Part shown: positions 2,324 to 60,029 of the stretch, piece after piece
Layout of the letters: every line of letters starts with the position of its first letter
Numbering within the stretch: position 1 is the stretch's first letter
Source of the DNA: Camelus dromedarius
Lineage: Eukaryota
Reading direction: 5' to 3'
Assembly: GCF_036321535.1 (NCBI RefSeq)
Contig: NC_087436.1
Span: 61,258,001-61,322,000 of the forward strand
DNA length: 64,000 nt
Notes under the pieces: generated by a model
Database searches by the model: none
What the model was told of the DNA's origin: nothing
What the model saw: the letters and a program-made list of their open reading frames with translations, nothing else
Position numbers and translations under genes: made by a program

Positions 2324-3467
2324 TAAAAAAATTTGTTATTTATTGAAGTATAGTCAGTTACAGTTTCTGGTGTACAGCATAGTATTTTAGTCATACATAC
2401 ACATACATACATTTGTTTTCATATTCTTTTTCATTATAGGTTACTACAAGATATTGAATATAGTTCCCTGTGCTATACAGAAGAAATTTATGTTTTAATC
2501 TATTTTGTATATAGTAGTTAATATTAGCAATAATATTAGCAATTCTTGAACTTCCAATTTATCCTTCCCACCTCCATTCCCCCCCAAGTAACCATAGGTT
2601 TGTTTACTATGTCTGTGAGTCTGTGTTTTGTAGGTAAGTTTATTAGTGGCTTTTTTAAAATTTCTTTTTTTGCTTCAGCATTTGTTTTTTAAAAATTTTT
2701 TAATTAAAAAAAAGTGTATATATATTTATTGTAGTATAGTCAGTTTACAATGTTGTGTCAATTTCTGTACAGCACAATGCTTCTGTTATTCATGAACATA
2801 CATATATTCGTTTTCATGTTCTTTTTCACCGTAAGTTACTACAAGATATTGAGTATAGTTCCCTGCGCTATACAGCATGAACTTGTTTATCTATTCTATA
2901 TATATCAGTTAGTATCTGCAAATCTCTAACTCCCAATTTATCCCTTCCCACCTCCTTCCCCCACCCCTGGTAACCATAAGTTTGTTTTCTAAGACTGAGT
3001 CTGTTTCTGTTTTGCAAATAAGTTTGTCCGTCTTTTTTTTTTTTTTAGATTCCACGTGTAAGTGATATCATATGGCATTTTTCTTTCTCTTTCTGACTTC
3101 ACTTATAATGACAATCTCCAGGTTCATCCATTTGCTGCCAGTGACATTATTTTATTATTTTTTATGGCCAAGTAGTATTCTATTAGTATAAATATACCAC
3201 AACTTCCTTATCCAGTCATCTGTCAATGGACATTTAGGTTGTTTTCATGTCATGGCTATTGTAAATAGTGCTGCAGTGAACACTGGGGTGCATGTATCTT
3301 TTAGGATTAAGGTTCCTTCTGGATATATGCCCAGGAGCGGGATTGCTGGATCATATGGTAAACCTATTTTTAGTGTTTTGAGGAATCATTTGTGGACTTT
3401 TGAATGATGGCCATTCTGACTGGTGTGAGGTGATACCTCACTGTGGTTTTGATTTCCATTTCTCTGT
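2324..3467 (-). mobile_element. Young 5'-truncated L1 carrying two copies of the 3' UTR end
   Basis: T-rich tail plus 'tttattgaagtatagtcagtt...' L1 3' end at ~2335 and again at ~2725. Flanked by an imperfect direct repeat gccatagatcagattctt (~2306) / gccctagatcatattctt (~3468), read as a TSD. Confidence 0.85.
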
Positions 3468-4059: not shown

Positions 4060-4718
4060 TGAGACAGGAAGAGGGAAGAGCACAGCCATTCAAGGAATAA
4101 CACAGCAATTAACACCAGAATGGCTAAAGATTCAACCCCCAGGAGGCCTTGAGGCTCAAGATGGTGGGAGATTTGGCTTCTAGTAGACCTTGAACTTCAT
4201 TATACGCCCACTGTAATATATTAACATGGTGAATAACATGCCCACAGGCACCGTGACAGTCCAAAGGCCAGCCACAAAAGGTCAAAGAGTGGGAAATGAC
4301 CAACTTCGTGGGAATCCTGGCCCCTTCCCAGCCCCTTCCCCAGGCTAGTTAGACTGGTCCTTCCACTTACTAGCGTATGAAGCCACTTAGCCCATAAAAA
4401 CTAGCAAAGTGGCTGCTGCTGCCGCCCCCCCTCTTCCTCCCCCACTCCCCCCACTTCAGAGACAACCTGCACTCTGTCTGTGGAGTGTGTACCTACTTTT
4501 ACTCTAATCTGAACACCCAACCTCCATACCTTGTGGCCTTTCTTTTGCCTTTCAGTGTATCTCTCTAAATCTACCTTGACTCAACTGTGGCTCGCTCTTG
4601 AATTCTTTCCTGTGTGAAGCCAAGGACCAACACTTGGTGGGGCATGTCTTGGGGTGGGGCTCAACCAAAGCCTGGGACATGGCCCTCCTCATGCCCTACA
4701 TCCGTTTTTCTTGCATCA
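4060..4718 (+). mobile_element. ERV1-type solo LTR
   Basis: TG...CA termini (tgagacagg...ttgcatca), TATA-like cataaaaa at ~4393, and an R/U5-like segment (ctcgctcttgaattctttcctgtgtgaagccaaggacc). The host L1 resumes on both sides. Confidence 0.8.
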
Positions 4719-13674: not shown

Positions 13675-14170
13675 TTCATTTGCATATATTTTCTCCCATT
13701 CTGGAGGTTGTCTTTTTGTTTTGTTGATACAAAGCTTAGCTGTGCAAAAGCTTTTAAGTTTAATTAGATCCCATTTGTTTATTTTTGTTTTTATTTCCAG
13801 TACTTCAGGAGCTGGTTCAAAATATATATTGCTGTAATCTATGTCCACGAGTGTTCTGCCTATGTTTTCCTCTAGGAGTTTTATAGTATCTGGTCTTACA
13901 TTTAGGTCTTTAATCCATTTTGAGTTTATTTTTTTATATGGTGTTAGAGAATGATCTAATTAGATGCATTATCTAAGTAGATTCTAATGCTGAAATTAGA
14001 ATGCTCTAATTTCAGTCTTTTACAGGTAGCTGTCCAGTTTTCCCAGCACCACTTACTGAAGAGACTATCTTTTCTCCATTTGTGTGTTCTTGTCTCCTTT
14101 GTCATAGATTAATTGACTATACACGCATGAGTTTACTTCTGGACTTTCTATCCTGTTCCATTGATCTATC
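13675..14170 (-). mobile_element. Young L1 ORF2 fragment
   Basis: ORF 13660-13848 contains '[19 protein letters not shown]...[13 protein letters not shown]', from the L1 ORF2p C-terminal region. Confidence 0.9.
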
Positions 14171-14174
14171 AAGA

Positions 14175-14950
14175 ATATATTTTTAAAAGGCTGCTTTGGG
14201 AGGTATGGAGAAGGTTGGACCTGGAATTCTTAAAGACATATTAGGAGGCTACTATGTAATTAGCCGAGAAGAATGGTGTTCACTGGCGTTGGGGTGACAG
14301 GGGAGCGGCCTCATAGAAGCAGGTGTCTGGCGGGGGTAGGCAGTGAGAAAGCAGCACAGAGCATCAAATGGGCCAGACAGGGAGGTGTGGAGTGTGACTC
14401 CCAGTGTGCTGAATTGTACTTATGCAACTGGAGAAGTGGTGGGAATGTTCGCTGAGAGAGGAAGGTCGTCTTGGAGGAGCACAAGTCTGGAGGTGAAGGT
14501 CGTTAGCATTTCTTTGCACAGCTTGGGTTTGAGGTGCCTGGAGGTATGCATTTGGATGCCATGGGCAGAGCTCTTATAAGGATGTTCGAATGTGTGCAAG
14601 ATTACTCATGGGAAAGTTTAGGATGAGATGATGAGGTGGCCCCCAGCACAAAGCTTGGAGTATTTCCAACAGTCGAAGGCTGAATACAGGGAGATTGATA
14701 AAGCAGATGGAAAAAGAGCTGCCCACGAAGTCGGAGGGAAATCAGAAGAGACAAGGGAATTGAGCATTTCAGGAGACATTGGTGGACAAGAGGGGCAACT
14801 CTCTCATTCAGCAGTGTGAGGGCCAGCGTTGATTTCAGTCGGTGCTGTCATAGGAGATGTGATGAGACAGCCACAAGTGGGGTTCCGTGTCTGAGTTCAG
14901 AGTGAGAAAAGTAGAGGGCCGGCCAGTGCAATTATTTCCTTTCTGCGAGT
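14175..14950 (-). mobile_element. Degraded L2 fragment
   Basis: Purine-rich antisense L2-like motifs (ggctgctttgggagg, ttaggaggctactatgtaatt, gggtttgaggtgcctgga). Confidence 0.5.
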
Positions 14951-16238
14951 CTGTTTAAATGCTCGAGAGAGGCATTCATTGAAAGGCAACTCAAAGGGGA
15001 CCTTAAAATGTCTAGCCCAGTCCAGGTGCAGTCAGGCCATCGCTGTGGGAACAGAACAGAGGCAGATGCACTGCTGATGGTTTGGGTGGCACTTTGGCAG
15101 TTCCTTGAGAATCTGGAGCATGAGGTCTCCAGCCTGCTGTCCTTCCACACTGGGCTGTTTGTCATCGAGAAACCATAGAGCATCAGGGAGTGTCACCCCA
15201 GGCCCCTGGCGGCTTCACAGAACCCACCCTGAAGGACGCAGGAGAAGTCACTGCAGCTTGTGAGTGCAGCCATGCATGTCATGTGATAGCTGGAGGGGAG
15301 CCTCAGCCCCAGCACGCAGCTTTCTGACCAGCCCAACCCTGGCCTTCCTTTGGGGTGATGCCTGGTGAGTACCCCTCAGGCCCTGCTGCTTAGAGCACCC
15401 TGCCAGGTGGGCCATGTTGCCTTCTCTGGATCAGAGGGCACTGACTTGGTCACTCGCTGGTCTCGCAGCTGGTGGAGGACGTGGGAGGGGATTTTGCTGG
15501 GGTGGCTCCTGGGAGATGGATCCCACCCCACCTGAGCTGCTTCCCTGCAGCCCCCCAGCATCCTACTGATCACCAATTCTCAGCGCTGCCTCTTGGAAGC
15601 GGCCACTCCCCTTCACATCTGCCAGCACCCTCCGGTCTCCCAGTTCCCACCTGAATCCTGCTCTTCCTTTCTCTTTCCACCCAGCCCCTCTCCTCCAACC
15701 TAGAGCAGCCACAACAAATACGCCCCCAGTCCCGCAGGGCTTCTGTGGCTCTGAGCTCGTGGCCTGCTGTCTGTGCCCCCTCTCACCATGCCCCTACCCA
15801 GCAGCAGAGAGCACAGCTTGCGCCTCTGTTCCCTCCCCCGCGATTGCTCATCAAAGGCCTACATCAGGCAGGCACCTGGGGTGGAGGGGCACTGCCGCCG
15901 TGGCTGGAGGTCAGAGCCAGAAAGTCAGATGCAAACCCAAGTTTTGCCACAGACTGGCTTTCTCAGGCTGGAAATGGTCTTTGGAGAAACACCAGGAGCA
16001 GACCGTCTGCCTGGTTTCTTTCCATCCCAAGGCGCCCCGCTCGGCACTGGCTTTGGGCACTGACTTTTGGTGCTGGCAGGTTGGGCAGGGTGCTACAGTG
16101 CCGGCTCTCCGTAGTTCAGAGCCGCGGAGGCACCTGCCCGGGGGACAACAGCCAGCTGAAGGGTGTGAGGACTCCGTTTGCTGCAGTCTCCGGGGCCACC
16201 GTCACTCGTGGACACTTGTTTTGCATTCTAACACAGTA

Positions 16239-16244
16239 TTTATT
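16239..16244 (-). terminator. AATAAA polyadenylation signal of the MIA3-like retrogene
   Basis: tttatt on the + strand, about 120 nt past the last MIA3-like codon (TGA at 16366-16368). Confidence 0.55.
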
Positions 16245-16365
16245 GAGAATTCATATACATGTGAAGCTACCCTTCCATGCCCCCTCCCCCCTCCCCTCCC
16301 CTGCACCCGAGTGCACCCCCTGCTGCCTAGGAAAGAGTTCCAGCACAAAAGTTTCTAAAGAAGCT

Positions 16366-17992
16366 TCACTCTGAGGAAACACACAAGAGTCCCTGCATGC
16401 TAACAAAGACACTCTCTAGCTCAGGGACCTCAGCCTCCTGCTGACACCACCACTCCCCCTGCTTCTGCAAGTCCTCCCCCTCCGAGTGATAGTACCTCTC
16501 CTGCAGCCTGTGGAGCTCAGCCAAGGACTCTTCTGTGCTCAGGGCTGGGGGCTCCCCTGGCATGTGCCTACGCCCCTCCCCACACCACGTCCCGGGGCAC
16601 CTGTTCTGCTGGCAAGTTCTTTAAAGGGTGTTCCTCCTCTGAGAAGTGAACAAGTGGATTTCTTCACGTTCAGTTTTCTTCTTCAGACATGCTGTACTTT
16701 TCCTTTAGTTCAGACATTGTCTTGTGGAGATTTTTCTTGCTTGTGTTCACAGCTGTCTTTATGACCTTCAGCTTTTTGTCAAACTGGGCCAAAGATGTAC
16801 CCCGTGCGGTTCACCTCCATGGACAGCTCTTTCAGCTTCTCTTGTTTGCAGCATCCCTTTCCCCTCAACAAGAGAGCTCTCCAGAGAAGAAGGACTCCCC
16901 AGGCAGTATGCAACCAGGACATCAGGTTGAATGTGGTCCCAGGCCAGGGGCCCACCAGCACCTTGGCCCAGTGACCCATCAGGAGGATCATGCTCTGAAG
17001 GGTTCAGAGCACCAAAGTGCTGACGTTTGAGCGCCTGCCCTTGACAAAGGCCACTGTCGCCTCCTTGGACAGCTGCTGCCGATGCCCTGGCCACAGCAAC
17101 AGCAGACAGAGTCTGGCCTGGGCTGGTGGCCTCGGATCTCTCACGTCTTGGTCAGGACTCCCCACGTCTTTCGGTCCAGGTCGCTCTTGCTGCCCCATTT
17201 CCCAGCCTCCAATCTGTCTGGTGGAGTAATTGAACTGCTGTGGCAGGCCGAGCTGGTTGTACCGGTTCTTCCCTTCATGGCTGTTGGGGCTGGGAGTCAG
17301 GGAGGCAGCCAGGCCAAGGTTGCCAGGAGGTGATAGGAGGTTTCTGGGGCCCCTCTCCTCACCCACTGCAGCCTCTGAGCTCAGATACCTGGAGGGCAGC
17401 GTGGGGATGGCACGTATGAGGACCAGAATGAGGTATTCCTCTTCCACCAGGTAGCAGCCTCTTCCTGCCAGCTGACCTAGGTCTGGCAAAGGTGCCGATG
17501 GCCACAGGCAGAAGAGGACTCGGGGAACAACCAAGGAAAGTTTCTGTCTGGATACCCACTGTGCACTTGGAGAGGGTTCTGGAGAGTGTGGCATGGGAGT
17601 CAGCGGCTGCCCTCTGTTTACCTTGGTGTCTGAGTGCTTGGCTGGCCAGTGAGAAGCTGGTTTGGGATGCCAGATGCCTGGGAGGGGTGCTCCCGGGATG
17701 GGCAGGGGTCTGCTGTGCTCCTGTTCTCGGAGCCCAATATCCCGCCATGGGGCTGGAACCAGAGGGAGAGGAACTGGGCTAACCCCCACGGGAGCAGGAG
17801 GCGCCAGGTGTGGGTGCGTGGACACTCCAGCCTGCAGAGAGGTATGAAGGTGGATGCCAGCATGAAAGTGGAGTGTGTAGTGTGGTTGAGGGGCCCAGAG
17901 CAAGAAGGGTGGGCACGGCGTGCGTCAGAGGTGGGCGTGGAGAAGGCAGTGGAGAAGGTGGCAACAATGAGCAAGAGCACCAGAAAGGCCAT
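16366..17992 (-). pseudogene. Intronless, highly divergent MIA3/TANGO1 (cTAGE family)-like retrogene, disabled
   Basis: Joining frames gives TLQSMILLMGHWAKVLVGPWPGTTFNLMSWLHTAWGVLLLWRALLL...QEKLKELSME...SLAQFDKKLKVIK...TERE...LSTEESLAELHRLQERYYHSEGEDLQKQGEWWCQQEAEVPELESVFVSMQGLLCVS. This is colinear with the remembered human MIA3 transmembrane and first coiled-coil region (LENAILLI...PGPDFYGLPW...IFLWRTVLV...SEKLK...SERE...LSEEKVKSECHRVQEE...[34 protein letters not shown]). In-frame stops occur at 17004-17006 and 16621-16623, with frameshifts near 16800, near 16690 and further upstream. Confidence 0.75.
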
Positions 17993-18026
17993 CTCTGCTA
18001 TGGCTGACCTCCGCGGTGTTGCTGGC

Positions 18027-18033
18027 TTTTATA
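18027..18033 (-). promoter_or_regulatory. TATA box (TATAAAA) of the retrogene
   Basis: Canonical TATAAAA beginning 41 nt upstream of the ATG at 17992, which has a good Kozak context (gagATGg). Confidence 0.6.
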
Positions 18034-18081
18034 ACCACTAGCGGTGCATCACAATACCTCCCTGTGACCCCTGCGGCCCCA

Positions 18082-18185
18082 CTGGCCAATTGCCAGGCAG
18101 CCCTCAGCAAGCCGCGCCTCTGGCCAATTGCCAGGCGGCTCTCAGCAGGCCACGCCTCTGGCCAATTGCCAGATGGCTCTCACCG
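18082..18185. repeat. 38-bp tandem repeat (~2.7 units), each unit containing CTGGCCAATTGCCAG
   Basis: Exact 15-mers at 18082, 18120 and 18158. Confidence 0.95.
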
Positions 18186-18193
18186 TGTCCCTC

Positions 18194-18650
18194 TGTAACA
18201 GAAAAGAACAAATCTGTCTCCATATGAGACCAGTTCCTTTGATTCTCACCCTGTTCCCTGTTTCCTGTTTCCTGGGCTTAGTCTTGCTAGCTCTGCACCT
18301 TTTATAAAAGAATGTTGCCTTCAGCCTGAAATACACAGGAGAGCCCATCATCAAGGCTCTGACCTTTAAGGGTATAACACTTTTGCACTCATATAATGAT
18401 GACAAATTGCAGAATAGAAAATAATGTTTGTTTTGTGGGAGGTTTACAGGGACACCAAGACCTGACCCACATGGACAGCTGCAAGGGCAAAGGACTCTGA
18501 CACCAAGAAGTTTGCACAACCAACCCCCTCCGTCCCTTTTTAGTATAAAAGGAGCCTGAATTCTGGCTTGGGGAAGATGGTTCTCTGGACCATTATCCCC
18601 CATCTTCTCAGTCGGCTGGCTTTCCAAATAAAGTTGCTATTCCTTGCCCC
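18194..18650 (+). mobile_element. ERV1-type LTR, 3' end apparently truncated
   Basis: Starts tgtaacag; TATAAAA at 18544-18550; AATAAA at 18627-18632 followed by gttgctattccttgcccc. Confidence 0.75.
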
Positions 18651-18909
18651 CCCTGCCCCTACAAAGTCTAGTCCAACCTTTCCTAAAACGTGTGACACAG
18701 CTTGTTTCTAGATATTATGTGTAGAAATTGGGGTTCAGTCATCAAAAAAGTCAGGAAACGTGGGACTTAACAATAAACATGCTTCTTCCTTCAGGTCTTC
18801 CCAACGTTTAATATCCTAATGGGACTCTGATCTGTAAGAGGCAGACTCCCAGATTACTTCACCTGGATTTAAAAGATCATCTGTATTGTTGACTTTGTTC
18901 CTGTCAATT

Positions 18910-20065
18910 AAAAAAAGTAATAAGGTATTTTTAGAGCAGTTTCAGGTTTAGAAAGTCACTGAGCAGGAAGTACAGAGAATTCCCACGTAACCTGCTCCTT
19001 TCTTGACCACTCACCCCAGTTTCTACATTATTAACAACTTGCACTAATGTGATACATTTGTTATAATTGATGGAGCAATGTTGATACGTTATTAACTGAA
19101 GTCTTTAGTTTGCATTAGTATTCTCTCTCAGCTTTGTGGGGTTCTATGAGCTTTGAGAAATGAGTGATAGCATGTGTCCGCTATACAATATCACAGAGCA
19201 GTTTCACTGGCTTAAATACCCTTTTTCACATCTGTTCACACCCCTCCCCCATAATTCCTGGCACCAGCAAACACTGATCTTTCCATTGTCTTTGTAAGTT
19301 TGCTTTCCCCAGAAAGTCATATAGTTGTACTCATCCAGTATGTAGCCTTTTCAGAATGAATTATTTTACTTACCTATATGCATTTAGAGTTTTTCTATGT
19401 CTTTTTTTGTTTGTTTGGCTTGATACCTCACTTCTGTTTATTTCTGAGTAATATTCCATTGTAGGATGGACCACAGTTTATTTATCCTTTCACCTGTTAA
19501 AAGACACCTTGGTTGCTTCCAGTTTCTCTCTGAATCATGAATAAATCGTGGATAAAGCTGCTAAAAACACTGGTGTGTAGGTTTACTGGGAAAATAAGTT
19601 TTCAGTTCATTTGGGTAAATGATTATGATAATGATGGCTAGATTGTATGTAAGACTGTGTTTAACTTTGTGAGAAGCCACCAAACTGTCTTGTGGAGTGA
19701 CTGGACCACTTTGCATTCCCATCAGCAGTGATGGGAGTTCCTGTTGCTCCATATCCTCACCAGCATTTGATGTTGTCAGTGTTTTGGATTTTAGCTGTTC
19801 TAATAGGTGTACAGTGGTATCTCCTTGTTTTAATCTGTGATTACTTAATAACAGCTGATGCTAAGCATCTTTTCACATGCTTTTTTCCACCTGTATATCT
19901 TCCTTAGCAAGGTATCTATTCATATCAATGCCTGCTTTTTAATTTTGTTGTTTTCTTATGGTTGACTTTTTAATTTTTTTTTTAATACTTGGATACAAGT
20001 CCTTTATCAGCCATGTGTTTCGCAAATATTTTCTGCAAGTCTGTGACTTATTTTTTCATTGTCTT
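18910..20065 (-). mobile_element. Old L1M (L1MB/MC-like) 3' fragment
   Basis: ttttagagcagtttcaggttt...gaagtacagagaattccca, followed by typical antisense 3' UTR and ORF2-end motifs. Confidence 0.8.
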
Positions 20066-26762: not shown

Positions 26763-29700
26763 CTTAAAAAAAAAAACAATAAATTTGACATATAATATTG
26801 TGTAAGATTAAGGTGTACAGTGTGTACTTTGATACATCTATATATTGTAACTTAATTGCTGATATAGTGATATATATCACATTACATAATTATAATACAG
26901 TATTATTGTTTATATTCATTATACTGTGCCTTAAATCTCTGTGTCTTATTTACTACTTGTTGTAAGTTTGTACCCTTAAACATCATCAGCCTTACCCCTT
27001 GTACTTACCACTTGTCAGCCATCCCCTGGTAACCATCTTTTTACACTCTGTTTTTTATAGGTTTAACTATTTTAGATTCTAGATATAAGGGATATCGTAT
27101 AATACTTGTCTTTCTCTGTTTTTATCTTGATTAACATAGTTGCCCTAGGTCTGTTGCAAATGGGAAGATATCCCTCTTTCTCATGGCTGAACAATATTCC
27201 ATTGTGTATTTGTACCACATCTTTTTATATCCCGTTATCCTTTGATGGGCTTTTGGGTTGTTTCCGTATCTTGGCTATTGTGAATAATGCTGTGATAAAC
27301 ACAGGAGTGCATATACCTCACTGAAATCCTGTTTTCATTTCTTTGGGTATGTTCCCAGAAGTGGAATTGCTGGACTGTGTGTTAGATCTATTTTTAATTT
27401 TTTGAGGAACTTCCATATTATTTTCCATAGTGGTTGGACCAATTTACATTCCTATCAACAATGTATAAGGGATTTTTCCCTTTTTACCACATCCTCACCA
27501 GCACCTGTCTTTTATCTTCTTGATAATAGCCATTTTAACAGGTACTATGTGATATCTCATTGTGGTTTTGATTCGCATTTCCCTGGTGATTAGTGATGTT
27601 TAGTATCTTTTCACGTGTCTGTTGGCCATTTTGATGCCCTCTTTTGAAAAATGTCTATTTTTAATCAAATTATTATTATTTGTTATTAAATTGACTGAGT
27701 TCTTTATGTATTTTGGATATTAACCATTTATCTGATATATAGTTTGTAAAAACTGTCTCCTATTATGTAGGTTATCTTTCCATTTTGTTAATTGTTTCTT
27801 TTGCTGTGTAAAGGATGAGTTTGATGTAATCCCATTTGTTGATTTTTGCTTTTGTTGTTTGTGCTTTTGGCATCATGTTAAAAAAAATAATAATCACCAA
27901 GACCAATATGGATGAGCTTCTTCCCTATGTTTCTTCTTGGAGTTTTATGGGATTAGGTCTTACATTTACATGTTTGATCCATTTTGAGTTCATTTTTGTG
28001 AATGGTGTGAAATAGGGGTCCAATTTCACTGTTCTGCGTACATTTCTCCAATTTCCCTGGCACCATTTGTTGAAGACACTGTCTTTTCCCCATTGGGTAT
28101 TCTTGACTCACTTGTTGAATATTAGTTGACTGTATATGCCAGGATTTAATTCTCGGCTTCCTATTCTGTTTCAACAGTTGATGTGTCTATTTTTGTGCCA
28201 GTACCATACTGTTTTTATTACTATGGCTTTATAGTATAATTTGAAATCCAGAAGCAGTGATATCTCCAGCTTTGTTTTTTTCTCTCAGGATTGTTTTGGC
28301 TATTTGGTTTTTTTTGTGGTTTCAGACAAACTTTAGGATTGTTTCTTCTATTTCTGTGAAGAATATCTTTGTATTTTGATGCAGATTATGTTGAATCTCT
28401 AAATGGCTTTGGGTGGTATGGTCATTTTAACAATATTAATTCTTCCAGTCTGTGAACACAGGATGTCTTTCCATTTGTTTGTGTCTTCTTCAGTTCCTTC
28501 CAGCAGTGTCTTGCCGTTTTCAGATATTGCCGTTGTACAGATATTTTACTTCCTTGGTTAAATCTGTTGCTAAATATGTTGTTATTCTTGATGCTATTGT
28601 GAATGGGATCATTTTCTTTATTTCTTTCTCAGATGCTTCATCATTACTGTAAAGAAATGCAATTGATTTCTGTATGTTGATTTTGTATCCTATCACTTCA
28701 CTGAGATCATGGATTAATTCCAACAGTTTTTTGAACAACTCCTTGGAATTTTCTACATATAAGATTCTGTCATCACCAAATGACAGTTTTACTTTCTTCT
28801 TTTGGATTTCGATGCCTTTTATTTCTTTGTCTTGCTTTATTGCTCTGAGGACTTACAGCACTATATTGAATAGAAGTGGTGAGAATGGCATTCTTGTCTT
28901 GTTTCTGATCTTAGAGGAAATGTTTTCTATTTTTCCCCATTGAATATAATGTTAGCTGTGGGTTTGTTGACATATGGTCTTTATTATGTTGAGGTATATT
29001 CCTTCTATAATCAATGTATTAAGAGTTTTTATCTTGAAATAAAGTATTTTTGTCAAATACTTTTTCTGTGTCTATTGAGGTGATCATGTGGTTTTTATTT
29101 TTTATTTTATTGATGTGATGTATTACATGTGTTGATTTGCATATGTTGAACCGTCCTTTCATCTCAAGGATAATTCCCAGTTGGTCATGGTGTAAATCCT
29201 TTTAATGTGTTCTTGACTTTGGTTTGCTAATGTTTTGTTGAGAATTTTTGCATCTATATTCATCAGGGATATTGGTCTATAGCTGTTTTTTTTCCTCTCG
29301 TGGTATCCTTATCTAATTTTGGTATCAAAGTATGCTAGCTTCATAGAATGAGTTTGGAAGTGTTTCCTCCTCAATATTTTGGGAGGGTTTGAAGAGGAAA
29401 ATTTGATATGTTTTATTTCCATTTTCATTTGTTTTGAGGTAATTTTTACTTCCCTTTTGATTTCTTCTTTGACCCAATGATTGTTTGAAAGTATGTGTGT
29501 GTGTGTTTGTCTTTTGAAAGTGTGTTGTTTATTAATTCATCTTTAAATGTTTTGTAGAATTCTCCAGTGAAGCCATCATGGAGTTTCCTGTGTTGGGGTT
29601 TTTTTGGTTATTGATTCAATCTCTTTATTAGTTATTGTCTGTTTAAATTTTCTAGTTCTTCCTGATTTAGTCTTGGTACATTGTGTGTTTCTAGATGTAT

Positions 29701-30620
29701 CCATTTCTTCCAAGTTGTTTAATTTGTTGGCATATAATTGTTCATAGTAGTCTCTTATGATTCTATATATTTCTGTAGTATTAGTTGTGGTGTCTCCTCT
29801 TTTATTTTCATTTTTATTTTCATCTTCTTTCTTTTTTCTTAGTCTAGCTAAATGTTTGTCAGTTTTGCAAATCTTTTCAAAGAATCAGCTCTTAGTTTTT
29901 TTGATCTATTCTGCTGTTTTTCTGGTCTCTGTTTCATTCATTTCCACACTGATCTTTATTATTCCCTTCCTTATGCTAACTTTGGGCTTAATTTGTTCAT
30001 ATTTTTCCAGTTCCTTAAGATGTAAAGTTAAGTTGTTTATTTGACATCTTTTAAATTTCTTAATATATGTGTTTATTGATATAAAATTTCCTCTGAGAAC
30101 TGTTTTTGCTACATCCCACAAAATTTGATGTTTTATTTCCATTTTCATTTGTTTTGAGATAATTTTTACTTCCTTTTTGATTTCTTCTTTGACCCAATGA
30201 TTGAAAGTTTGTTTTTTTATTTTATTTTTTGAAAGTGTGTTGCTTAATATCCATATATTTATAGATCTTCTCATTTTCCTCTTGTTGATATCCAGTTTCA
30301 TACCATTCTGGACAGAGAAGATAGTATGATCTTAATCTTCCTAAATTTGCTAAGATTTGTTTTGTGGCCTATCATATGATCTGTCCTGGAGAATGTTCCA
30401 TGTGCATTTGAGAAGAATGTGTATTCTACTTCTACTGGATGGAATATTTTGTATATGTTTATATGTTTATTTGTTCAATTCCAAGGTTTCCTTGTTGATT
30501 TTCTGTCTAAATGATTTCTTCACTGTTGAAAGTAGAATATTGAAGCTTCCTACAATTATTGTATTGTTGTCTATTTCTCTCTTAAGGTCTATCATTATTT
30601 ACTTAATGTATTTTGGTGCT
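26763..30620 (-). mobile_element. 5'-truncated L1 (~3.9 kb), degenerate ORF2 plus 3' UTR
   Basis: ORF fragments 'LWDVAKTVLRGNFISINTYIKK...INNLTLHLKELEK' (29906-30301) and 'KLLELIHDLSEVIGYKINIQKSIAFLY' (28520-28738) match L1 ORF2p; the frame has many stops. Confidence 0.95.
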
Positions 30621-49380: not shown

Positions 49381-52300
49381 GTTTTTCTTTTATCAATCAG
49401 TTAGGAAGTATTAAGTGTTCAGCTTTAAGTTGGAGTAGACTTAGCAAAATTTGTCAAGGTCTATGGCTTTCTTCCACTGAATGTATTAAAATCGTTACTC
49501 TAAACGGTGGAGCCAACTCCCAAATTTTCTCTGATAACAGGCTATGGTGGTCTCATCGTGAGGCCAAAACCACTCTGTAAATTCAGTGAATTCATTGGTG
49601 AAGAAAATTGGCCCTGTGGTTTTGATAGTGTGTAGAATAAATAGCTGGTTGATTGTCTGCAATATTCATTTTCCAGTGTGTCAGTGAACAATGTGAGAAA
49701 TGTTTTTTGCCTGGCCTTTTCTTTGCGTAATTTTGGAGAGCCTGAAAGCCAGCAGAAGCAGGAAAGACTGAGGGTCATAGATTAGACCCTCATGGGTTAT
49801 GACTTAGTTCTTGGGATCAAATTGCTGTCTCTTGCAAATGTGATTTTGGCCTCCTGCACATTGATCTTACACCAGCTAATAAACTTGGTTTAACAAATCA
49901 TTGATCATTGAACAAGAGTGTGTGACTCTACCTAAAAGTGAACTCCCTGTTGATTGTTTTAGTCCAAAACTCAATCATGAGGTTTTAAATCCTGAGATTT
50001 GTGTAAGAATCATCTGAACAACTTGTAAAATTAAAATTACAGGTCTCCATTCAAAAATTTTGAAACACTGTTATAGAGCCTAAGAAATCATTTTTAGCAA
50101 GAATGTCAGTTGATTCCGATACTTGCTAACCTAGAGGCCACATTTTAAGAAATGAAAATTTGAGAAACACTGAACTAAGTCAGAGAACTTAGATTAGCCA
50201 GGAAATGGTCAAAATCTTGTTGTGAATTCTAAGCAGCCCTCAAAAAATATCTGTATTGTCATGTAATTTGTTCAATATCCTATACAAAGGGCTTGGAAAA
50301 CAGTCTGCATAGTAAAAACACAATGAGCTTTCCAAGGCTTGACTGCTGGAGACTGCTGTAAATTTTCTAAATAATCTGTACAACGGTTTTAGGCATTTCT
50401 TCTAGTTAATATTGAGGGCTTTCCACCCACTCCATTTACTAGTGCCCTTCAGGATTGTAGAAAAGAACAGTTGGCCCTCAATGAGGACAATGGAAAGCAA
50501 GTTGAATGAATTCCAAAATGGCATATTTTACTTGAAAAACATGCATTATGCTCTTTTCCAAGTAAACTGCACAGAAAAATGTAAATGAAGCATAAAGCTC
50601 TTATGAATTAGGCCCTAAGCGTTTTTCTTTTTAGCATATAAACTGCCACTAAGGATGTGATAGGAATGCATTTTCTACTATTTTTCAAACTGTAATTACG
50701 TTTCCCTAGTAAAACTCAAATACTTGATATGGTCCTGTTGCAACTGTACCAGACAGGTAATAATTGGAAAATTTAACGCAGAGCTTTATCTCTTAAATGC
50801 TAAAAGGTACGGCTACTCACAGCATACAGAAGAGTTGGCATTAAATATAAAAACTGTGAACCTGGTGTTTCTCTATGATGTTAATTTTGCATCTGGAAAT
50901 ATGTTCCAAAGCTGTAGCACCCTTTTAAATATAAAAGAATAAAAAGACAATTCCTTCCCCAACTTTTACCTAAAAGAACCTATAATCTCCATCTGCCATT
51001 CAGTGGTTCCATTTTTTTTTTTCACATTTACTGTATTTCAGGTTGGAATGTGATGCATGTAAGTCTCAGCAGTAAATTAACTTATTTAAGAAGCAAGAGA
51101 ATAAAATGAAGCAAAAAAGAGGAAAATTCTCTGAAGAGCAGTGTTCAATTGTGTATCTAAAGACCATCAGAAATGGGCACACAATAAAACTCGTACAGTG
51201 AATTAAAGAGATTTGAGCAATGCTCTTCCTATCCATCACTATGGTAGACTTTGTTAGCCAACATTATTTTTTTATTACTGTCTTTTTTCAAAATTCAGCA
51301 ATTCTGTGACTTATACTACATTAAAGATGTGAGAACCTACACAGATAATGAAAGGCTCCCCAAGTCTTCCATATGAATTGATAATACTATTTTTGCAGAC
51401 AACGCAAATTAGTTTCCACATGGGCACATCATATGCAATTTGTATGGAAAAACCATAGAGTCACAAATTTAGGACAAAGCACATCATTGTCTGGAATGTG
51501 ATCTTACATTTTAAGATGCTTAGAAAAGCAAAATCTCTGAAATAATTTCTGATAAGATCTTTCATGAAATCTTCATCCTGACTTTGCATTTTCACTTGGG
51601 AAATCTTTGATTTTTTTCCTAGTGCATGTGAAACGAAAATCTACAGCCCTTTGACAATGGTTCATCTGTACTTGAATTTTTTATGGATTTCATTCAGAAG
51701 TGATGCAACTCATTTTTGTGTCTGTCAAAAGAAATATTAATTTATTTCCGCATGCCACTTTTCATGTCTCATTACTGTGCACATCTGATTTCAAAGGACT
51801 TGCTACAGGACAACTTTGTAACTGTGAATTAAAGTTATGATTTCTGAAAGCATTTATCAACTTTGGATGCATAAAAACTAAACTAAGTATAACTGAAAAC
51901 AGTACAACTTTAAACCTCTAATTAGTAGTTGCAGTCAATATTCTCCAGTAAGTCAGAGTGGAAATCATCTCATAAGTGTAAATATGTAGCTTTTGACAGT
52001 CGGGGAGGCAAGAGAGTATAAAGATCAATAGCTCAGAGTTTGGAATTAGACAAGGGTTTCAGATCTCTGCGTTAACATTTACCACTAGTCCTGACCTTAA
52101 GCTTGTGCTCTTTGAGCTCAGGTTCCCTCATGTATAAAATGGATAAGATAGTAGTTATAATATTTAGGATGTGCTAACTGTTGTATCCCAAATGTATAGT
52201 GGTTCAAACACAATAGAAATTTGATTTTTATTCACTAATGGTAGTTGATAGTGACCAAGGAGCCTCTTCTCCAGTTAGTCATTCAGAGACCCAGGCTGGC

Positions 52301-52743
52301 AGCAGTTCTACTGTTTTAATCTCTTTAGGAAAAAAGAAAAAAATTGAGAAATAAATGATCTCTCCATCATTTAATCTATCAGAGAATAAAAGAAATCTTA
52401 GAATTGGAAAGTACTTTAGAAACCATGTAACCAACTTCCTATGAATGGATTTTTGCTTGAATAGTTTAAGTAAAAAGGAGGCAGTGCATTTTCTTATTGT
52501 GTCTTGAGTCCCTGAAAAATTTTATTGCAGGCAAAAAATTTGTATCCTCCAGCTGTCCCATCCTGCCCACTAGTATTTGCTTTGACCTCAGACATTTTTA
52601 CTCATTAATTCACTCAACTGATGTTTATTGAGTGCCTAAGGTACATCTGAGATAGTATGCTGGGCTCTGGATATTCAAAATCAAATGTATACTCCTTACC
52701 TTGAAATACTTGAAACATTCTACCCTTCATAAAGCATGAACTT

Positions 52744-52851
52744 GTGCTCGCTTTGGTAGCACTATACTAAAATTGGAACGATACAGGGAAGATTAGCATG
52801 GGCCCTATGCAAGAATGACACACAAATTTGTGAAGCGTTCCATATTTTTTT
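52744..52851 (+). pseudogene. RNU6-like: Full-length U6 snRNA retro-pseudogene (5' part of a chimera)
   Basis: gtgctcgctttggtagcac-tatactaaaattggaacgatacagggaagattagcatgggccctatgcaagaatgacacacaaatttgtgaagcgttccatattttttt matches U6 with about 9 differences, including in the ACAGAGA box (acaggga). No PSE/TATA was recognised upstream. Confidence 0.97.
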
Positions 52852-52942
52852 ATTCTAATCTGAACACCCAACCTCCACACCTTGTGACCTTTCTCTTGTA
52901 GCTTTAAATAAATCTACCTTTACTCAAAAAAAAAAAAAAAAA
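52852..52942 (+). mobile_element. ERV LTR R-region fragment plus polyA, fused to U6
   Basis: Near-identical to ~4501-4585 of the solo LTR in this window. AATAAA at 52907-52912 and A17 at 52926-52942. Confidence 0.9.
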
Positions 52943-53306
52943 TAGGCAGGAACTTGTGTCTTAGCCCTTATTGTTTCCCTAGCCCCTAGCATAGTGCAGG
53001 CACTTAGGAAGTGCTCCCTCCATAGTTGTTGAATAAGTAGGTATCATGGTGGAGACAGAAAAGGAAAACAGGCAATGTCAGAATAGTGAAATGTATAATA
53101 TTAAGGAGGCAATGACTGGGCTCTGAGGGAGCAGCCAGGAAGGGCACCTAACCCATCTGGGCACTGCAGTTAGGAGGAGGTGATATTTGAGCTAAGTAGT
53201 GAAGAATGTGAGAATTTACCATGTTATAGAATGAGGGAGGGAAGTTTCTAGAAGAGAAAAATAGCATGTTTGAGGCCTAGAGTTGAGAGGACTTGTCAGA
53301 GTGTGA

Positions 53307-53757: not shown

Positions 53758-55275
53758 GATAGTGTTATCAATGTACAGTCAATGGAGAATTGGGAAGAAG
53801 GGGTTAGCAATCAGAAATGCTGTCCTATGAGGCTCATCATTGATATAAATATAGTAGGAACTTTTGAAAACTGATTTACCAGATGAACCAGAACTCTCTG
53901 TGCCCTCTGTATAAGATGCTTGACTGGACACTTCTAGTTAGTAGGTTACTCTCTAGTTTGCCCAGGTCCTTCTGCTCTCAGAAGTTGAGCTATATACTTA
54001 GCAAATCTATTGTTCCCAAAACTACTTCTGTCTATTGTACTTGTAATTATGCAATATTATTAAAATATGTTATATATCTTATGGGTAAATTATGAGAGTT
54101 ATTTCTTTGAAAAATGATGATATGTTTTGGAAAAACTGGAGTATGATTAAAACATTGTAAAAATCAAGAAGACTTATGCAGTCAGAGTGCTTTTCAAGTG
54201 TCTTAATGTTTTGCATGTTAAAGATACCAAAGCTACAAATTGTAAAGGATGCATTTTAGGAGTGGTTTATACAAAAAGAACTTTGAGGAAGTTCAGGCAG
54301 TGGCAATGTATACATGCATGTTTGGAGTTTAAGTAAAATACCTAAGGTATGTATTTTTAAATGGCTTTCTGCTTGAACCAACTTTTATACTTAATTTTCC
54401 TGATTGCATTGATTAGGAAAGTTTCTTTTGTACTTTGGTAAAGTGACTGAGTAGGAATGTTAGCAGGTACTGTCTTCAGGATTAATGAGAACTTTCTTTC
54501 AGTCACACTGAATGGGGAGCAAATTTCCTTCTTACCTGGCAAGTGGCTGTTTTAAGAACTGGGATTTGGATTCCCAGCATTCTGAAGTGGGCCTGATGTT
54601 CCCTATATAAACAGCATAATAAATGGTGTCTTGTTTTTCAGCCCTGGGAATTGATTTAACCCAAGGTCATAGAGCCAGAAATGCAAACAGTTTCTTCCTT
54701 TTTTTTCCTTTATCATGTTCTTTATAACATGCCTCACCAACACAAAGGAAATACTTTGCCAGTCACTTTTTAGTGAAAACAGTATTTTCTTTTTCTTTTT
54801 CTTTTCTCTTCATTTTCTTCCTCCTTTTACTTCTTTAAAATACATGTTTCAGGATCTCATCCCTAGTTTACATACAATCTTTTGGAACACCACACATTTG
54901 CAAGTTGGAATAGTCTTCTATGTTTACTTTTTGTTTTTAGCATATTTAAGTTTCAAACTATATTTTGTTTGTATAAACATTAGTATTTAATGATGATGAT
55001 GAACATAAATCAGTTGATTATTGGGCATGTGGTCTAGAAATAGGAAATAGGTCAAATGATAGGGGAATTTAGCCTGGGTTTGAACTTTAGTCATGAATTC
55101 AACAATGAATAACTACAAAGTTATTAATCAGTCAGCAAATATTATTTAAATGTCTAATTTGCCAGGTACTGTACTAAGTGCTGACATATGATCAGTATGA
55201 AGATGAAAGACTGTCAGGTTCTGGAGATTCTATATCAGCATGATCTCTGTTTTCTGGGATCAAAACTAAGATTGC

Positions 55276-56663
55276 TAAGAGAAGACACTATAAACCTCTT
55301 AGAAGAAAATATAGGCAAAACATTCTCTGACATAAATCTCAGCAATGTTCTCCTAGGGTAATCTACCCAAGCAACAGAAGTAAAAGCAAAAATGAACAAA
55401 TGGGACCTAATTAAACTTAGTAAGCTTTTGCACAGCAAAGGAAACCATAAGAAAAGCAAAACGACAACCTACGGAATGGGAGAAAATATTTGCAAAAGAT
55501 GAGACTGACAGGGCTCAATCTCTAGAATATATAAACAGCTCATACAGCTTAACAAGAAAAAAAAAAAAACAAACAACCCAAACCAGAAATGGGCAGAAGA
55601 CCTAAACAAGCAATTCTCCAGTGAAGATGTATGAAGGGCCAACAGGCACATGAAAAAATGCTCAGTACCACTAATTATCGGAGAAATGCAAATCAGAACT
55701 ACAATGAGGTATCACCTCACAGCAGTCTGAATGGCCATCATTCAAAAGTCCCCAAACAATAAACGCTGGAGAGGCTGTGGAGAAAAGGGAGCCCTCCTAC
55801 ACTGTTGGGAATGTAGTTTGGTGCAGCCGTTATGGAAAACAGTATGGAGATTCCTCAAAAAACTGAAAAATAGACTTACCTTATGATCCAGCAATCCCAA
55901 TTCTGGGCATATATCCAGAGAGAACCTTAATTCAAAAAGACGCATACACCCCAATGTTCATAGCAGCATAATTTACAATAGCCAAGACATGGAGGCAACC
56001 TAAATGTCCATTGACAGATGACTGGATAGAGAAGTTGTGGTATATATATACAATGGAATACTACTCAGCCATAAAATAATAAAATAATGCTATTTGCAGC
56101 AACAAGAATGAACCTGGAGAATGTTCTTCTAAGTGAAGTAAGCCAGAAAGAGAAGGGAAAGTACCATATGATAACATTTGTATGTGGACTCTAAAAAAAA
56201 GACAAATGAACTTATTTTCAAAACAGAAACAGACTCATAGACATAGAAAACAAACTTAAGGTTACCAGTGAGGGAAGGGATAAATTAGGAGTTTTCTGCT
56301 TGACCCAACTTTTATATTTAATTTTTCTGATTGCATTGAATAAGGAAGTTTCTGTTGTAATTTGGTAAAGTGACTTGGTAGGAACTTAGCAGGTACTGGT
56401 TTCAGGGTTAACAAGAGCTTTCTTTCAGTCACACTGAATGGGGATACTAACTAATATACACAAAATAGATAAACAATTTCATACTGTGTAGCACAGGGAA
56501 CTATATTCAGTATCTTGTAGTAACCTATGGTGAAAAAGAATATGAAAACGAATATATGTATGTTTCTGTATGAGTGAAGTATTGTGCTGTACACCAGAAA
56601 CTGACACAACATTGTTAACTGACTAAATTTCAATAAAAACAAAACAAAACAAAACAACTCCAA
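55276..56663 (+). mobile_element. Young 5'-truncated L1 (ORF2 end, 3' UTR, A-rich tail)
   Basis: Sense ORF2 C-terminal motifs and aataaa at ~56632. TSD aaaactaagattgc (55262-55275) / aaaactgagattgc (56664-56677). Confidence 0.95.

Positions 56664-57922: not shown

Positions 57923-57925
<3 letters not shown>

Positions 57926-57958
<33 letters not shown>
57926..57958. repeat. (CAG)11 trinucleotide repeat
   Basis: Visible directly, flanked by CAA units. Confidence 0.95.
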
Positions 57959-57963
<5 letters not shown>

Positions 57964-60029
57964 ATAGAAAAAGGAGATTGTTCTGATGAAAACGAGAGTG
58001 ATTATTTCCATTACCATTGCTATCTTCTCCATTAAATAACTCTTATTATCCATAGAAAGAATGCATGACCCCAAACCAGGACAATGGATACATAGAAAAG
58101 TCCAAGAAAGCCTCATTCCTTAGCAAGTAGTGGACTCCATGGCTTCTGAAATGAGGGATGCTGGAATGCAGCTTGCGTAGAAGGTGGCTGTGATAGGTTT
58201 TACTCCAAAGTGCTAAGCTCGGTAAGCTAAGATTTCCCGAGCCTGTTGCCTTTAAGCTGCATGACTCACCCGAAAATTCACAAAACAAAAATGTGACCAC
58301 CATGGATTATGCTGCCATTGCTGTTAACATGCTGGCAATGATTGTAACAGGACTTGCCAAGCACACATTGACCCTGTGAGTCACATTGGTTCCTATGGAG
58401 ATTAACACCATCAACGGTGAGAACAACAGCCCAGAAGTGCGATCGGTGTTAGACAGGGAGGAGAAAAATGACAATATGATCCTCCAGAAATGCAGCAATT
58501 GGAATGAAAAAGGAGCATAGGGTGGCGCAGCTCAGGAGAGAAAATGACCCGTAATGGCATTGCAATCTACTTCTCTAGCTCTTCCTGAAAATGGCTGGGG
58601 AAAAAGTGTGGTTCCTGGCAGATAGGCTATAATCTACTTTTATTTATCTGACCATTTCCAGCAAGTTCTCTTCTCATTCCAGATAGCTTCTCTCTTCAAA
58701 GGAGTCTGTCCAAGGTGACCTCACCACACACCAAATGGTCCTGATGCTGAAACTACACGTCTGATTAACATGTTGGGATCCATGGGTGGGAAGGACATGG
58801 ATTACTTAGATGTATCTTGGTAGGTTTTAGTTTTCACTCTGAATAAAAAGACTTTTACTTCTATTCAAAGAAAACCATGACCTGAATTTTACAATTTAAA
58901 TGTTTCATCTATCTTAATAGAATAGTTGGGTTACTGAGAGTTAAGAGTCTGTTTTTTCCCTTGGAAGTTGTGGGGAGGGTATGTGCTGGGAAGACCTCCA
59001 GCCTCTCCTGTCCTTTGTAACCAGTTCTGTCTGGGCACCACCACAAGCAGCTTTGTACACAGGCTTACCCTGCTGGTGTCTGAGTCTCCAGCCTCTTTCC
59101 TAGGAATAAAGAGAAGGGAGAAGTCTGGAAACATATACATTTTCCAAATTCAAGATATGTGACTCATGCCCAGCTCAGATTAATCAGGGTGTATAAGGTG
59201 AGCTGTATTTTTTCCTGTTTTTCTCATATCAGCAGTTGTAGAAAATGCCTGTTAGTTGCTGAATGATCAAACAGATGTAAGAAGAGTAACTGGTTTCAAG
59301 CAAAATCAGATTAAATTGCATCAAAAGTAACCAAGCTGAAATGACAACATGTCACCCTGGAAAAGAAAGATGAAGGTTTTCAAAGAAATGACAAAGCATT
59401 TTTGGAGAAAATTAGTGTTACTAAGATAGTTGGAGATGGAAAAACGTACCGCTATTCTCCAAATGTTGGTTGATGATGACTATTCTGTTTAGTAGGGGAT
59501 GTAACTTGGTATACAGGAAAGTGCACTGGGCTGTGCATGATTACAGAATCAGCTGACCACTGACTGTTAGTAGAGTCTTAAGCAAGTCTCCTAAGTTCAC
59601 TGGGCCTCAGTTTACTAATCTATAAAGTAAAGAGTTTGTAACCACATAACTTCAAGGAACTGAACACAGTCTCTGACATAAAGTAAAACAATAAATGCTA
59701 GTGATTAGGATAATGATGATTTTGACAATGGCAACAATGATAATGGTGATGATGAAGATGATATTGATGTAATGATCATGACTATCAAGGGGTCTTTCCC
59801 CTTAGTTCCAAATTCTATGATTCTGAAAAGAGAACTTTATTTGTTATAAAAGTGATTTTCAAGAAGTTGTTTTTTGTAAAGGTTCTGCTTTATAGGAAGC
59901 TCAGAGAGTTGTATTTTTCAGTAATTTAAAATCAGTCTTATGCTCTAGGAACATGCTTTTCAAAGTCTTTTGTCCTCTGACCTTCCTAAATGGGTGTCCA
60001 TTCTCACTGTACTACATTGTGTATATCAG

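Follow-up and report, generated by a model that had tools for sequence, protein, structure and literature searches.

A copy of the U6 snRNA and a fragment of an LTR at positions 52732-52958 of the DNA analysed here very probably arose together, through one insertion, driven by L1, of U6 fused to an RNA that had been polyadenylated in an LTR and cut at its 5' side. The DNA, referred to as the window, is a stretch of 64,000 nucleotides from Camelus dromedarius. The anatomy of the locus points to a single event, and we likewise infer L1 as the enzyme and ligation as the joining step. The locus displays the anatomy of a U6 chimera, with a full-length U6 in sense, 7 T at its end, a partner in the same orientation, 17 A, and one outer duplication. 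An earlier reading made from the sequence only had proposed a chimeric L1-type retrocopy on the grounds of a full-length U6, a T run joined directly to an LTR piece, a run of 17 A, and flanking repeats, and each of these features was recovered. The features to which the text refers are as follows.

4060 to 4718, + strand: solo LTR with TG...CA ends, a relative of the partner piece (ends, weak flank repeat, flank alignments)
52732 to 52746, + strand: left target-site duplication, start possibly at 52731 (13 of 15 positions shared with 52944-52958)
52744 to 52851, + strand: U6 snRNA copy, full-length with a 7-T end, pseudogene with one change in the ACAGAGA box (Rfam RF00026, T run, no TATA)
52852 to 52925, + strand, as U6: LTR piece, 5'-truncated, 3' half of the inferred R region (blastn to 4497-4584, blocks of 41/45 and 17/18)
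52907 to 52912, + strand: poly(A) signal AATAAA, with cleavage 13-15 nt further on and no counterpart in the solo LTR (sequence)
52926 to 52942, + strand: tail of 17 A, the first two possibly templated by the LTR (A run, match of block 52910-52927)
52944 to 52958, + strand: right target-site duplication, start possibly at 52943 (13 of 15 positions shared with 52732-52746)
52949 to 53039, + strand: 3' end of an old repeat around the right flank (aligns to in-window remnants)

The U6 part is the sole Rfam match within the 64-kb window. Model RF00026 is matched over its entire length (positions 1-105 of 105) at 52744-52849 on the + strand, so that U6 lies in sense at the 5' end of the element, and the score of 90.1 bits compares with a gathering score of 44 (E = 9.3e-22). 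The copy is closed by 7 T (52845-52851) that abut the LTR match directly, with no A tract between, which agrees with the earlier claim of a full-length U6 joined directly through its T run. A functional U6 gene needs an upstream TATA element and an intact ACAGAGA box. No TATA element was found at -40 to -15 of the copy, and the Rfam alignment places one change in the ACAGAGA box. By these marks the copy is a dead pseudogene without a promoter, and the chimera as a whole bears no sign of a function.

The partner is a piece of about 74 nt in the same orientation as U6. Comparison of 52840-52930 with the window by blastn gave one strong non-self match, in which 52848-52927 aligns to 4497-4584 within the solo LTR (77.8% over 90 columns, E = 1.1e-16; the runner-up has an E of 0.014). 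The ungapped blocks of this alignment are identical at 41/45 and 17/18 positions, the second being 52910-52927 against 4567-4584. The local score of the piece against the solo LTR is 77, and shuffling the piece 40 times gave at most 33 on the remainder of the window. In the chimera, 13 nt separate AATAAA (52907-52912) from the run of 17 A (52926-52942), exactly as had been read from the sequence, and the LTR match ends at CA, at a point where the solo LTR runs on into G/T-rich sequence. Poly(A) sites usually have this arrangement, with cleavage at CA 13-15 nt past the hexamer and G/T-rich sequence following.

The match ends at 4582 and is followed in the LTR by two A, so the cleavage point can be mapped only to 4582-4584. 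The sequence-only reading had set the match at about 4501-4585; the strong match to the solo LTR stands, and its end is revised to those three positions. For a single source locus, the cleavage point of the partner RNA is thus mapped with a precision of 3 nt. Position, together with what we take to be a likeness to the MER4 group, suggests that the AATAAA site was the normal poly(A) site of the family. Speaking against this, and against the preferred account of the locus as well, the solo LTR is the sole family member compared and contains neither AATAAA nor ATTAAA anywhere in 4060-4718. Two earlier claims are narrowed by these results. A stop just past AATAAA, where the LTR continues, holds for the layout of the chimera but not for the signal in the solo LTR, and the poly(A) site said to be mapped for the LTR family is placed within 3 nt for one source locus, the sole LTR compared in the window being without the signal.

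The solo LTR, presumably an ERV1 element of MER4/MER41-like type, has a TATA-like motif at 4393, and G/T-rich sequence lies past 4584. Its flank repeat is weak (4 bp, with 2/4 matching). The two flanks align to adjoining parts of another remnant, 19294-19382 and 19386-19469, with 0/300 shuffles as good in each case, and it follows that the solo LTR was inserted into older, L1-like sequence; against other L1 remnants, the left flank aligned significantly to 1/3 and the right flank to 3/3. Taking the TATA-like motif and the point at which the match of the chimera ends as bounds, the R region of the solo LTR would run from about 4425 to 4582. Where the chimera has a 15-nt stretch with AATAAA, the solo LTR has 23 nt without the signal, and beyond this 8-nt length difference 5/63 aligned bases differ. 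Because it has no AATAAA, the solo LTR is a relative, in which the signal decayed or which belongs to another subfamily, and not a demonstrated source. A 20-mer shared by both LTR copies occurred in none of the viral contigs. Six metagenome loci with the shared 20-mer matched the LTR over 28-39 nt only and were dismissed as chance.

These differences bear on the proposal that break repair copied the LTR piece at the DNA level into a U6 already present, with the solo LTR 48 kb away as its template. Such local copying has a parallel nearby, in that 54366-54518 is repeated at 56293-56444. Nevertheless, the 5/63 differing bases and the 8-nt difference in length, the presence in the piece of an AATAAA absent from the solo LTR, and a stop precisely where an RNA would be cleaved make a patch of this kind very improbable.

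The insertion is framed by direct repeats. The copies at 52732-52746 and 52944-52958 match at 13/15 positions (core 12/13), and the last 3 nt of the left copy are the first 3 nt of U6, giving a 5' microhomology; both the repeats and this overlap had been described from the sequence and were confirmed. Random pairs of places scored as well in 5/3000 cases, under a null that kept tandem repeats and the locus itself, and the duplication may be regarded as good, though not overwhelming, evidence on its own. The left copy also matches 2873-2887 with 2 mismatches in 15, once more in the 128 kb of both strands; that match lies in an L1 3' UTR stretch and was taken as chance. If the duplication starts at 52731, the bottom-strand nick reads CTTT/AT, which is near but not the L1 endonuclease consensus, and three other starts are worse. 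The mismatches at 2/15 positions, the uncertain start, and a nick short of the full consensus therefore count against the single L1-driven insertion. Around the right flank lies an old repeat 3' end, presumably L2-like, and 52949-53039 aligns to 3/3 of the in-window remnants tried (0/300 shuffles as good in each case). The left flank, by contrast, aligned to none of these L2-like remnants (0/3), and this lack of support for a continuous target on both sides of the insertion is a further point against the preferred account.

In favor of a single L1-driven insertion, one outer direct repeat surrounds both parts, and no inner one was found between the left flank and the LTR piece (best 5/6). The partner also stops 13-15 nt past AATAAA at CA and passes into 17 A. 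The same anatomy could be built by two nested insertions, a U6-poly(A) retrocopy and a later L1-made retrocopy of an LTR end placed into its T/A border, although we consider this improbable. L1 endonuclease would find a good target in such a T/A border, a second duplication consisting of A could not be made out within the tail, and U6-poly(A) copies are common, making up 27/36 of the copies analysed in alpaca according to Table 2 in the portion of PMC4476161 available. However, nesting predicts that the T run and the LTR piece are separated by a run of A. The single A found there matches the solo LTR's own A at 4501, and either a blunt insertion or a later loss would have to be added to the scheme.

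An A tail together with a long duplication is the signature of L1, whereas integrase gives a duplication of 4-6 bp. The locus has neither U5 nor TG...CA ends, its A tail sits at the cleavage point, and its duplication is of 15 bp instead of 4-6 bp. A retroviral origin, in which U6 was packaged in ERV particles and retroviral reverse transcriptase switched between R and U6, is for these reasons very unlikely, even though retroviruses package host RNAs and may make snRNA pseudogenes (as parts of PMC4997597 state) and snRNA copies beside LTR elements are credited to Giles et al. 2004 in a passage of PMC4476161.

A single L1-driven insertion would have proceeded through several steps. An LTR in the solo LTR's family would have supplied the R/U5 border at which some RNA was cleaved and polyadenylated, and a second cut would then have fallen about 74 nt before the tail of this LTR-ended RNA. 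The U-rich 3' end of mature U6 would have been joined to the resulting fragment, most likely through RtcB ligation prior to reverse transcription. Acting in trans, L1 ORF2p may then have bound the poly(A) tail, made a nick at a CTTT/AT-like site within an old L2-like remnant, and copied through the LTR piece and then the whole of U6. The 5' end would have been joined at the 3-nt microhomology, leaving a duplication of 15-16 bp, and the inserted copy, having no promoter, would have decayed afterwards. Several steps have precedents. In the available sections of PMC6789731, genomic U6/L1 chimeras consist of a full-length U6, 5-7 T, and a 5'-truncated partner within a TSD of 6-19 bp, a T range that includes the 7 T at the present junction. 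The same sections describe RtcB joining U6 to L1 and GFP RNA bearing a 5'-OH, and joining to non-L1 RNA takes place in extracts. As for the other end of the element, L1 retroposes ERV RNAs whose 3' end is R followed by a poly(A) tail, as related in the accessible part of PMC5016936.

How the two RNAs came to be joined can be graded less firmly. Ligation by RtcB is our favored step, and a template switch by ORF2p, from the LTR RNA to the 3' end of U6, is a possible but less probable one that is compatible with the rest of the scheme. An A run in the new cDNA would then pair with the U tail of U6, and this would replace prior ligation. In the solo LTR, 4 T stand immediately 5' of the junction, which fits template switching equally well. 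A junction with at least 4 T would result from only 10/158 break points in the inferred R (6%), and one with at least 3 T from 18/158 (11%). This T-run test is post hoc, however, concerns one event, and uses a relative instead of the source LTR, and cleavage at U runs by an endonuclease generating 5'-OH ends would give the same picture under ligation. Also weighing against a switch, the 7 T are within the U6/L1 range and no partner motif was found at U6/L1 junctions in the portions of PMC6789731 available, which nonetheless leave template switching possible for some U6 chimeras. One fossil can neither decide between ligation and switching nor name the source RNA.

As to which RNA was the partner, a proviral RNA and a solo-LTR or host RNA appear about evenly matched. 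A 74-nt R end is common to proviral RNAs, short solo-LTR transcripts, and LTR-ended host RNAs, so a proviral template is neither demonstrated nor excluded. There is an even chance that U6 was joined to a host transcript (mRNA or lncRNA) or to a short RNA from a solo LTR, with its end at the LTR poly(A) site, which is compatible with the single L1-driven insertion; the element would then be, with that same even chance, a U6/processed-transcript chimera of the ordinary sort in which the final 74 nt come from an LTR. Solo LTRs are far more numerous than proviruses, and the piece holds R-region sequence only, with no U3 and no internal proviral sequence. U6/cellular mRNA chimeras have also been described (section 6 of PMC4476161 and PMC6789731, each in the part available). 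Nothing direct speaks against a partner of this kind. Proviral RNA would on the other hand be abundant while a family spreads, and the divergence of 5/63 is about that of the element's own decay, which may fit formation near the active period of the family. The earlier attribution to a polyadenylated ERV transcript is in this way upheld for an RNA polyadenylated in an LTR and reduced to a possibility for a proviral origin, for which a 74-nt R end is non-diagnostic. Germline transcription of an LTR family that spread would be expected in any case.

The age of the insertion can be roughly estimated from its decay. The duplication copies differ at 2/15 positions and the LTR piece differs from the solo LTR at 5/63, while the U6 copy has about 10/106 changes, 4 of them at CpG, against what we take to be the mammalian U6. 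A slower alternative rate for such decay is 2e-9 per year. Using either this or the mutation rate of 2.5e-8 per 5-year generation quoted in an available passage of PMC8605555, the insertion would be roughly 10-30 million years old.

Presence of the locus in sequencing data was assessed with 130 words sampled from 52000-53300, and sequencing runs with all or part of this region made up 20/24 rows. Fourteen genome-sized runs from one organism and 5 studies, one of which is maybe the source of the window, held 0.92-0.93 of the 130 words. The element makes up about 1/5 of the region, and at this word content it is probably present in the 14 runs. An assembly artefact or a private allele seems unlikely. 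Two RNA runs of one study held 0.78-0.79 of the words, flanks included. Their contigs come to about 840 million letters, which points to carried-over DNA or to intronic RNA, and they do not count as evidence that the element is expressed. Further rows, left out of the argument, held 0.45 and 0.36 of the words, or, in a second organism, 0.13 and 0.05.

The surroundings are mammalian repeat-rich DNA, and 9 ORFs searched against Pfam for a host gene matched 0 families. The L1 3' ends in the window have what we take to be a camelid-like look. Self-comparison of the window revealed no young SINE family among 25 repeat pairs, which fits the accessible text of PMC8605555. Several other features were seen along the way. 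The repeat at 56293-56444 is a 152-nt copy, 88% identical, of 54366-54518, 1.9 kb upstream, and is embedded in the 3' end of an L1. A related L1, at 2725-3387, is without the copy and has about 12 other bases there, so that the copy looks like a locally templated repair insertion. An antisense L1 remnant contains an internal duplication, 29398-29534 and 30120-30249, that is 87% identical. The stretch 15500-18200 is G+C-rich (53-58% in 14001-18000). Its minus strand has a TATA-like box near 18030, CCAAT-type motifs repeated at 18080-18170, and a frame from 17992 whose first residues form a hydrophobic run resembling a signal peptide. The ORFs tried there had no match in Pfam, and the stretch may possibly be a small secreted-protein gene or pseudogene. 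Adjoining its promoter-like part is a second LTR-like element at about 18195-18700, labelled by eye, with a TG start and AATAAA near 18627; it had no blastn match to the solo LTR. A CAG-type trinucleotide repeat of about 11 units lies at about 57925-57965.

In the literature covered, which is incomplete and does not establish absence from print, no U6/LTR-R-poly(A) chimera was found. None appears in the available portions of PMC4476161, PMC11838501, PMC6789731, PMC5016936, PMC4997597, PMC2104539, PMC11727581, PMC8605555, PMC13247085, and PMC2912911. Work that pairs U6 or snRNA with LTRs or ERVs, going by titles and abstract openings, turned up only as CRISPR editing of HIV or SIV, and a list of U6 partners was not found in the searched parts of the supplements to PMC4476161. 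As its accessible sections explain, that survey kept only U6 copies of at least 97.5% identity and tested their flanks against all of Repbase. Such a cut-off places old copies like this chimera outside the survey, and its "Repeat" class, as described in the same sections, could hide LTR partners.

With this locus, LTR-ended RNAs join the list of U6 partners, and a single historical cleavage site of an extinct LTR is placed within 3 nt. The ligation model predicts that partners can be any polyadenylated RNA with a 5'-OH end. A much bolder thought, which we rate as improbable, is that U6/LTR-R chimeras form a recurring, overlooked class in which a host nuclease cut ERV RNAs at U runs close to their 3' end, RtcB capped the resulting 5'-OH tails with U6, and L1 fixed some of them; at its boldest, the present copy would be one member of a small multi-copy family headed by U6 and tailed by an LTR. 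If true, such fossils would record a germ-line decay route of retroviral RNA and map the R/U5 borders of extinct families.

Chimeric retrocopies of U6 were reportedly described by Buzdin et al. 2003. The U6/L1 and U6/processed-pseudogene chimeras in the available parts of PMC4476161, PMC6789731, and PMC11838501 resemble the present element in their full-length sense U6, 5-7 T, 5'-truncated partner, poly(A) tail, and one TSD around both parts. The partners of described U6 chimeras are non-LTR retrotransposons or cellular mRNAs, however, and here the partner is the R-region end of an LTR. Group IV in the accessible text of PMC4476161 is defined by a non-LTR retrotransposon partner (LINE or SINE), and the present partner, which matches the solo LTR at 4060-4718, places the element outside that group in its strict sense.

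Giles et al. 2004, as cited in PMC4476161 and PMC4997597, reported snRNA pseudogenes next to LTR elements, for which retroviral packaging was proposed. They are alike in having an old snRNA copy next to LTR sequence, but the present locus bears the marks of L1 (A tail, 15-bp duplication) and none of those of integrase, having neither integrase ends nor a 4-6 bp duplication.

The closest parallel at the other end is with ERV pseudogenes processed by L1. HERV-W RNAs retroposed in this way end at R, have a poly(A) tail, and are flanked by a TSD of 5-15 bp, as set out in the portion of PMC5016936 available. The present element shares the end at R, the absence of U5, the poly(A) tail, and the long TSD, and its match ends at 4582-4584 while the solo LTR continues to 4718. 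In contrast to the HERV-W type, as that portion describes it, the element is limited to 74 nt of inferred R and lacks the U3, internal, or 5' R-U5 sequence that would make it colinear with a proviral RNA, and it has U6 at its head. The chimera thus combines two known things, U6 chimeras and L1-processed ERV RNAs ending at R.
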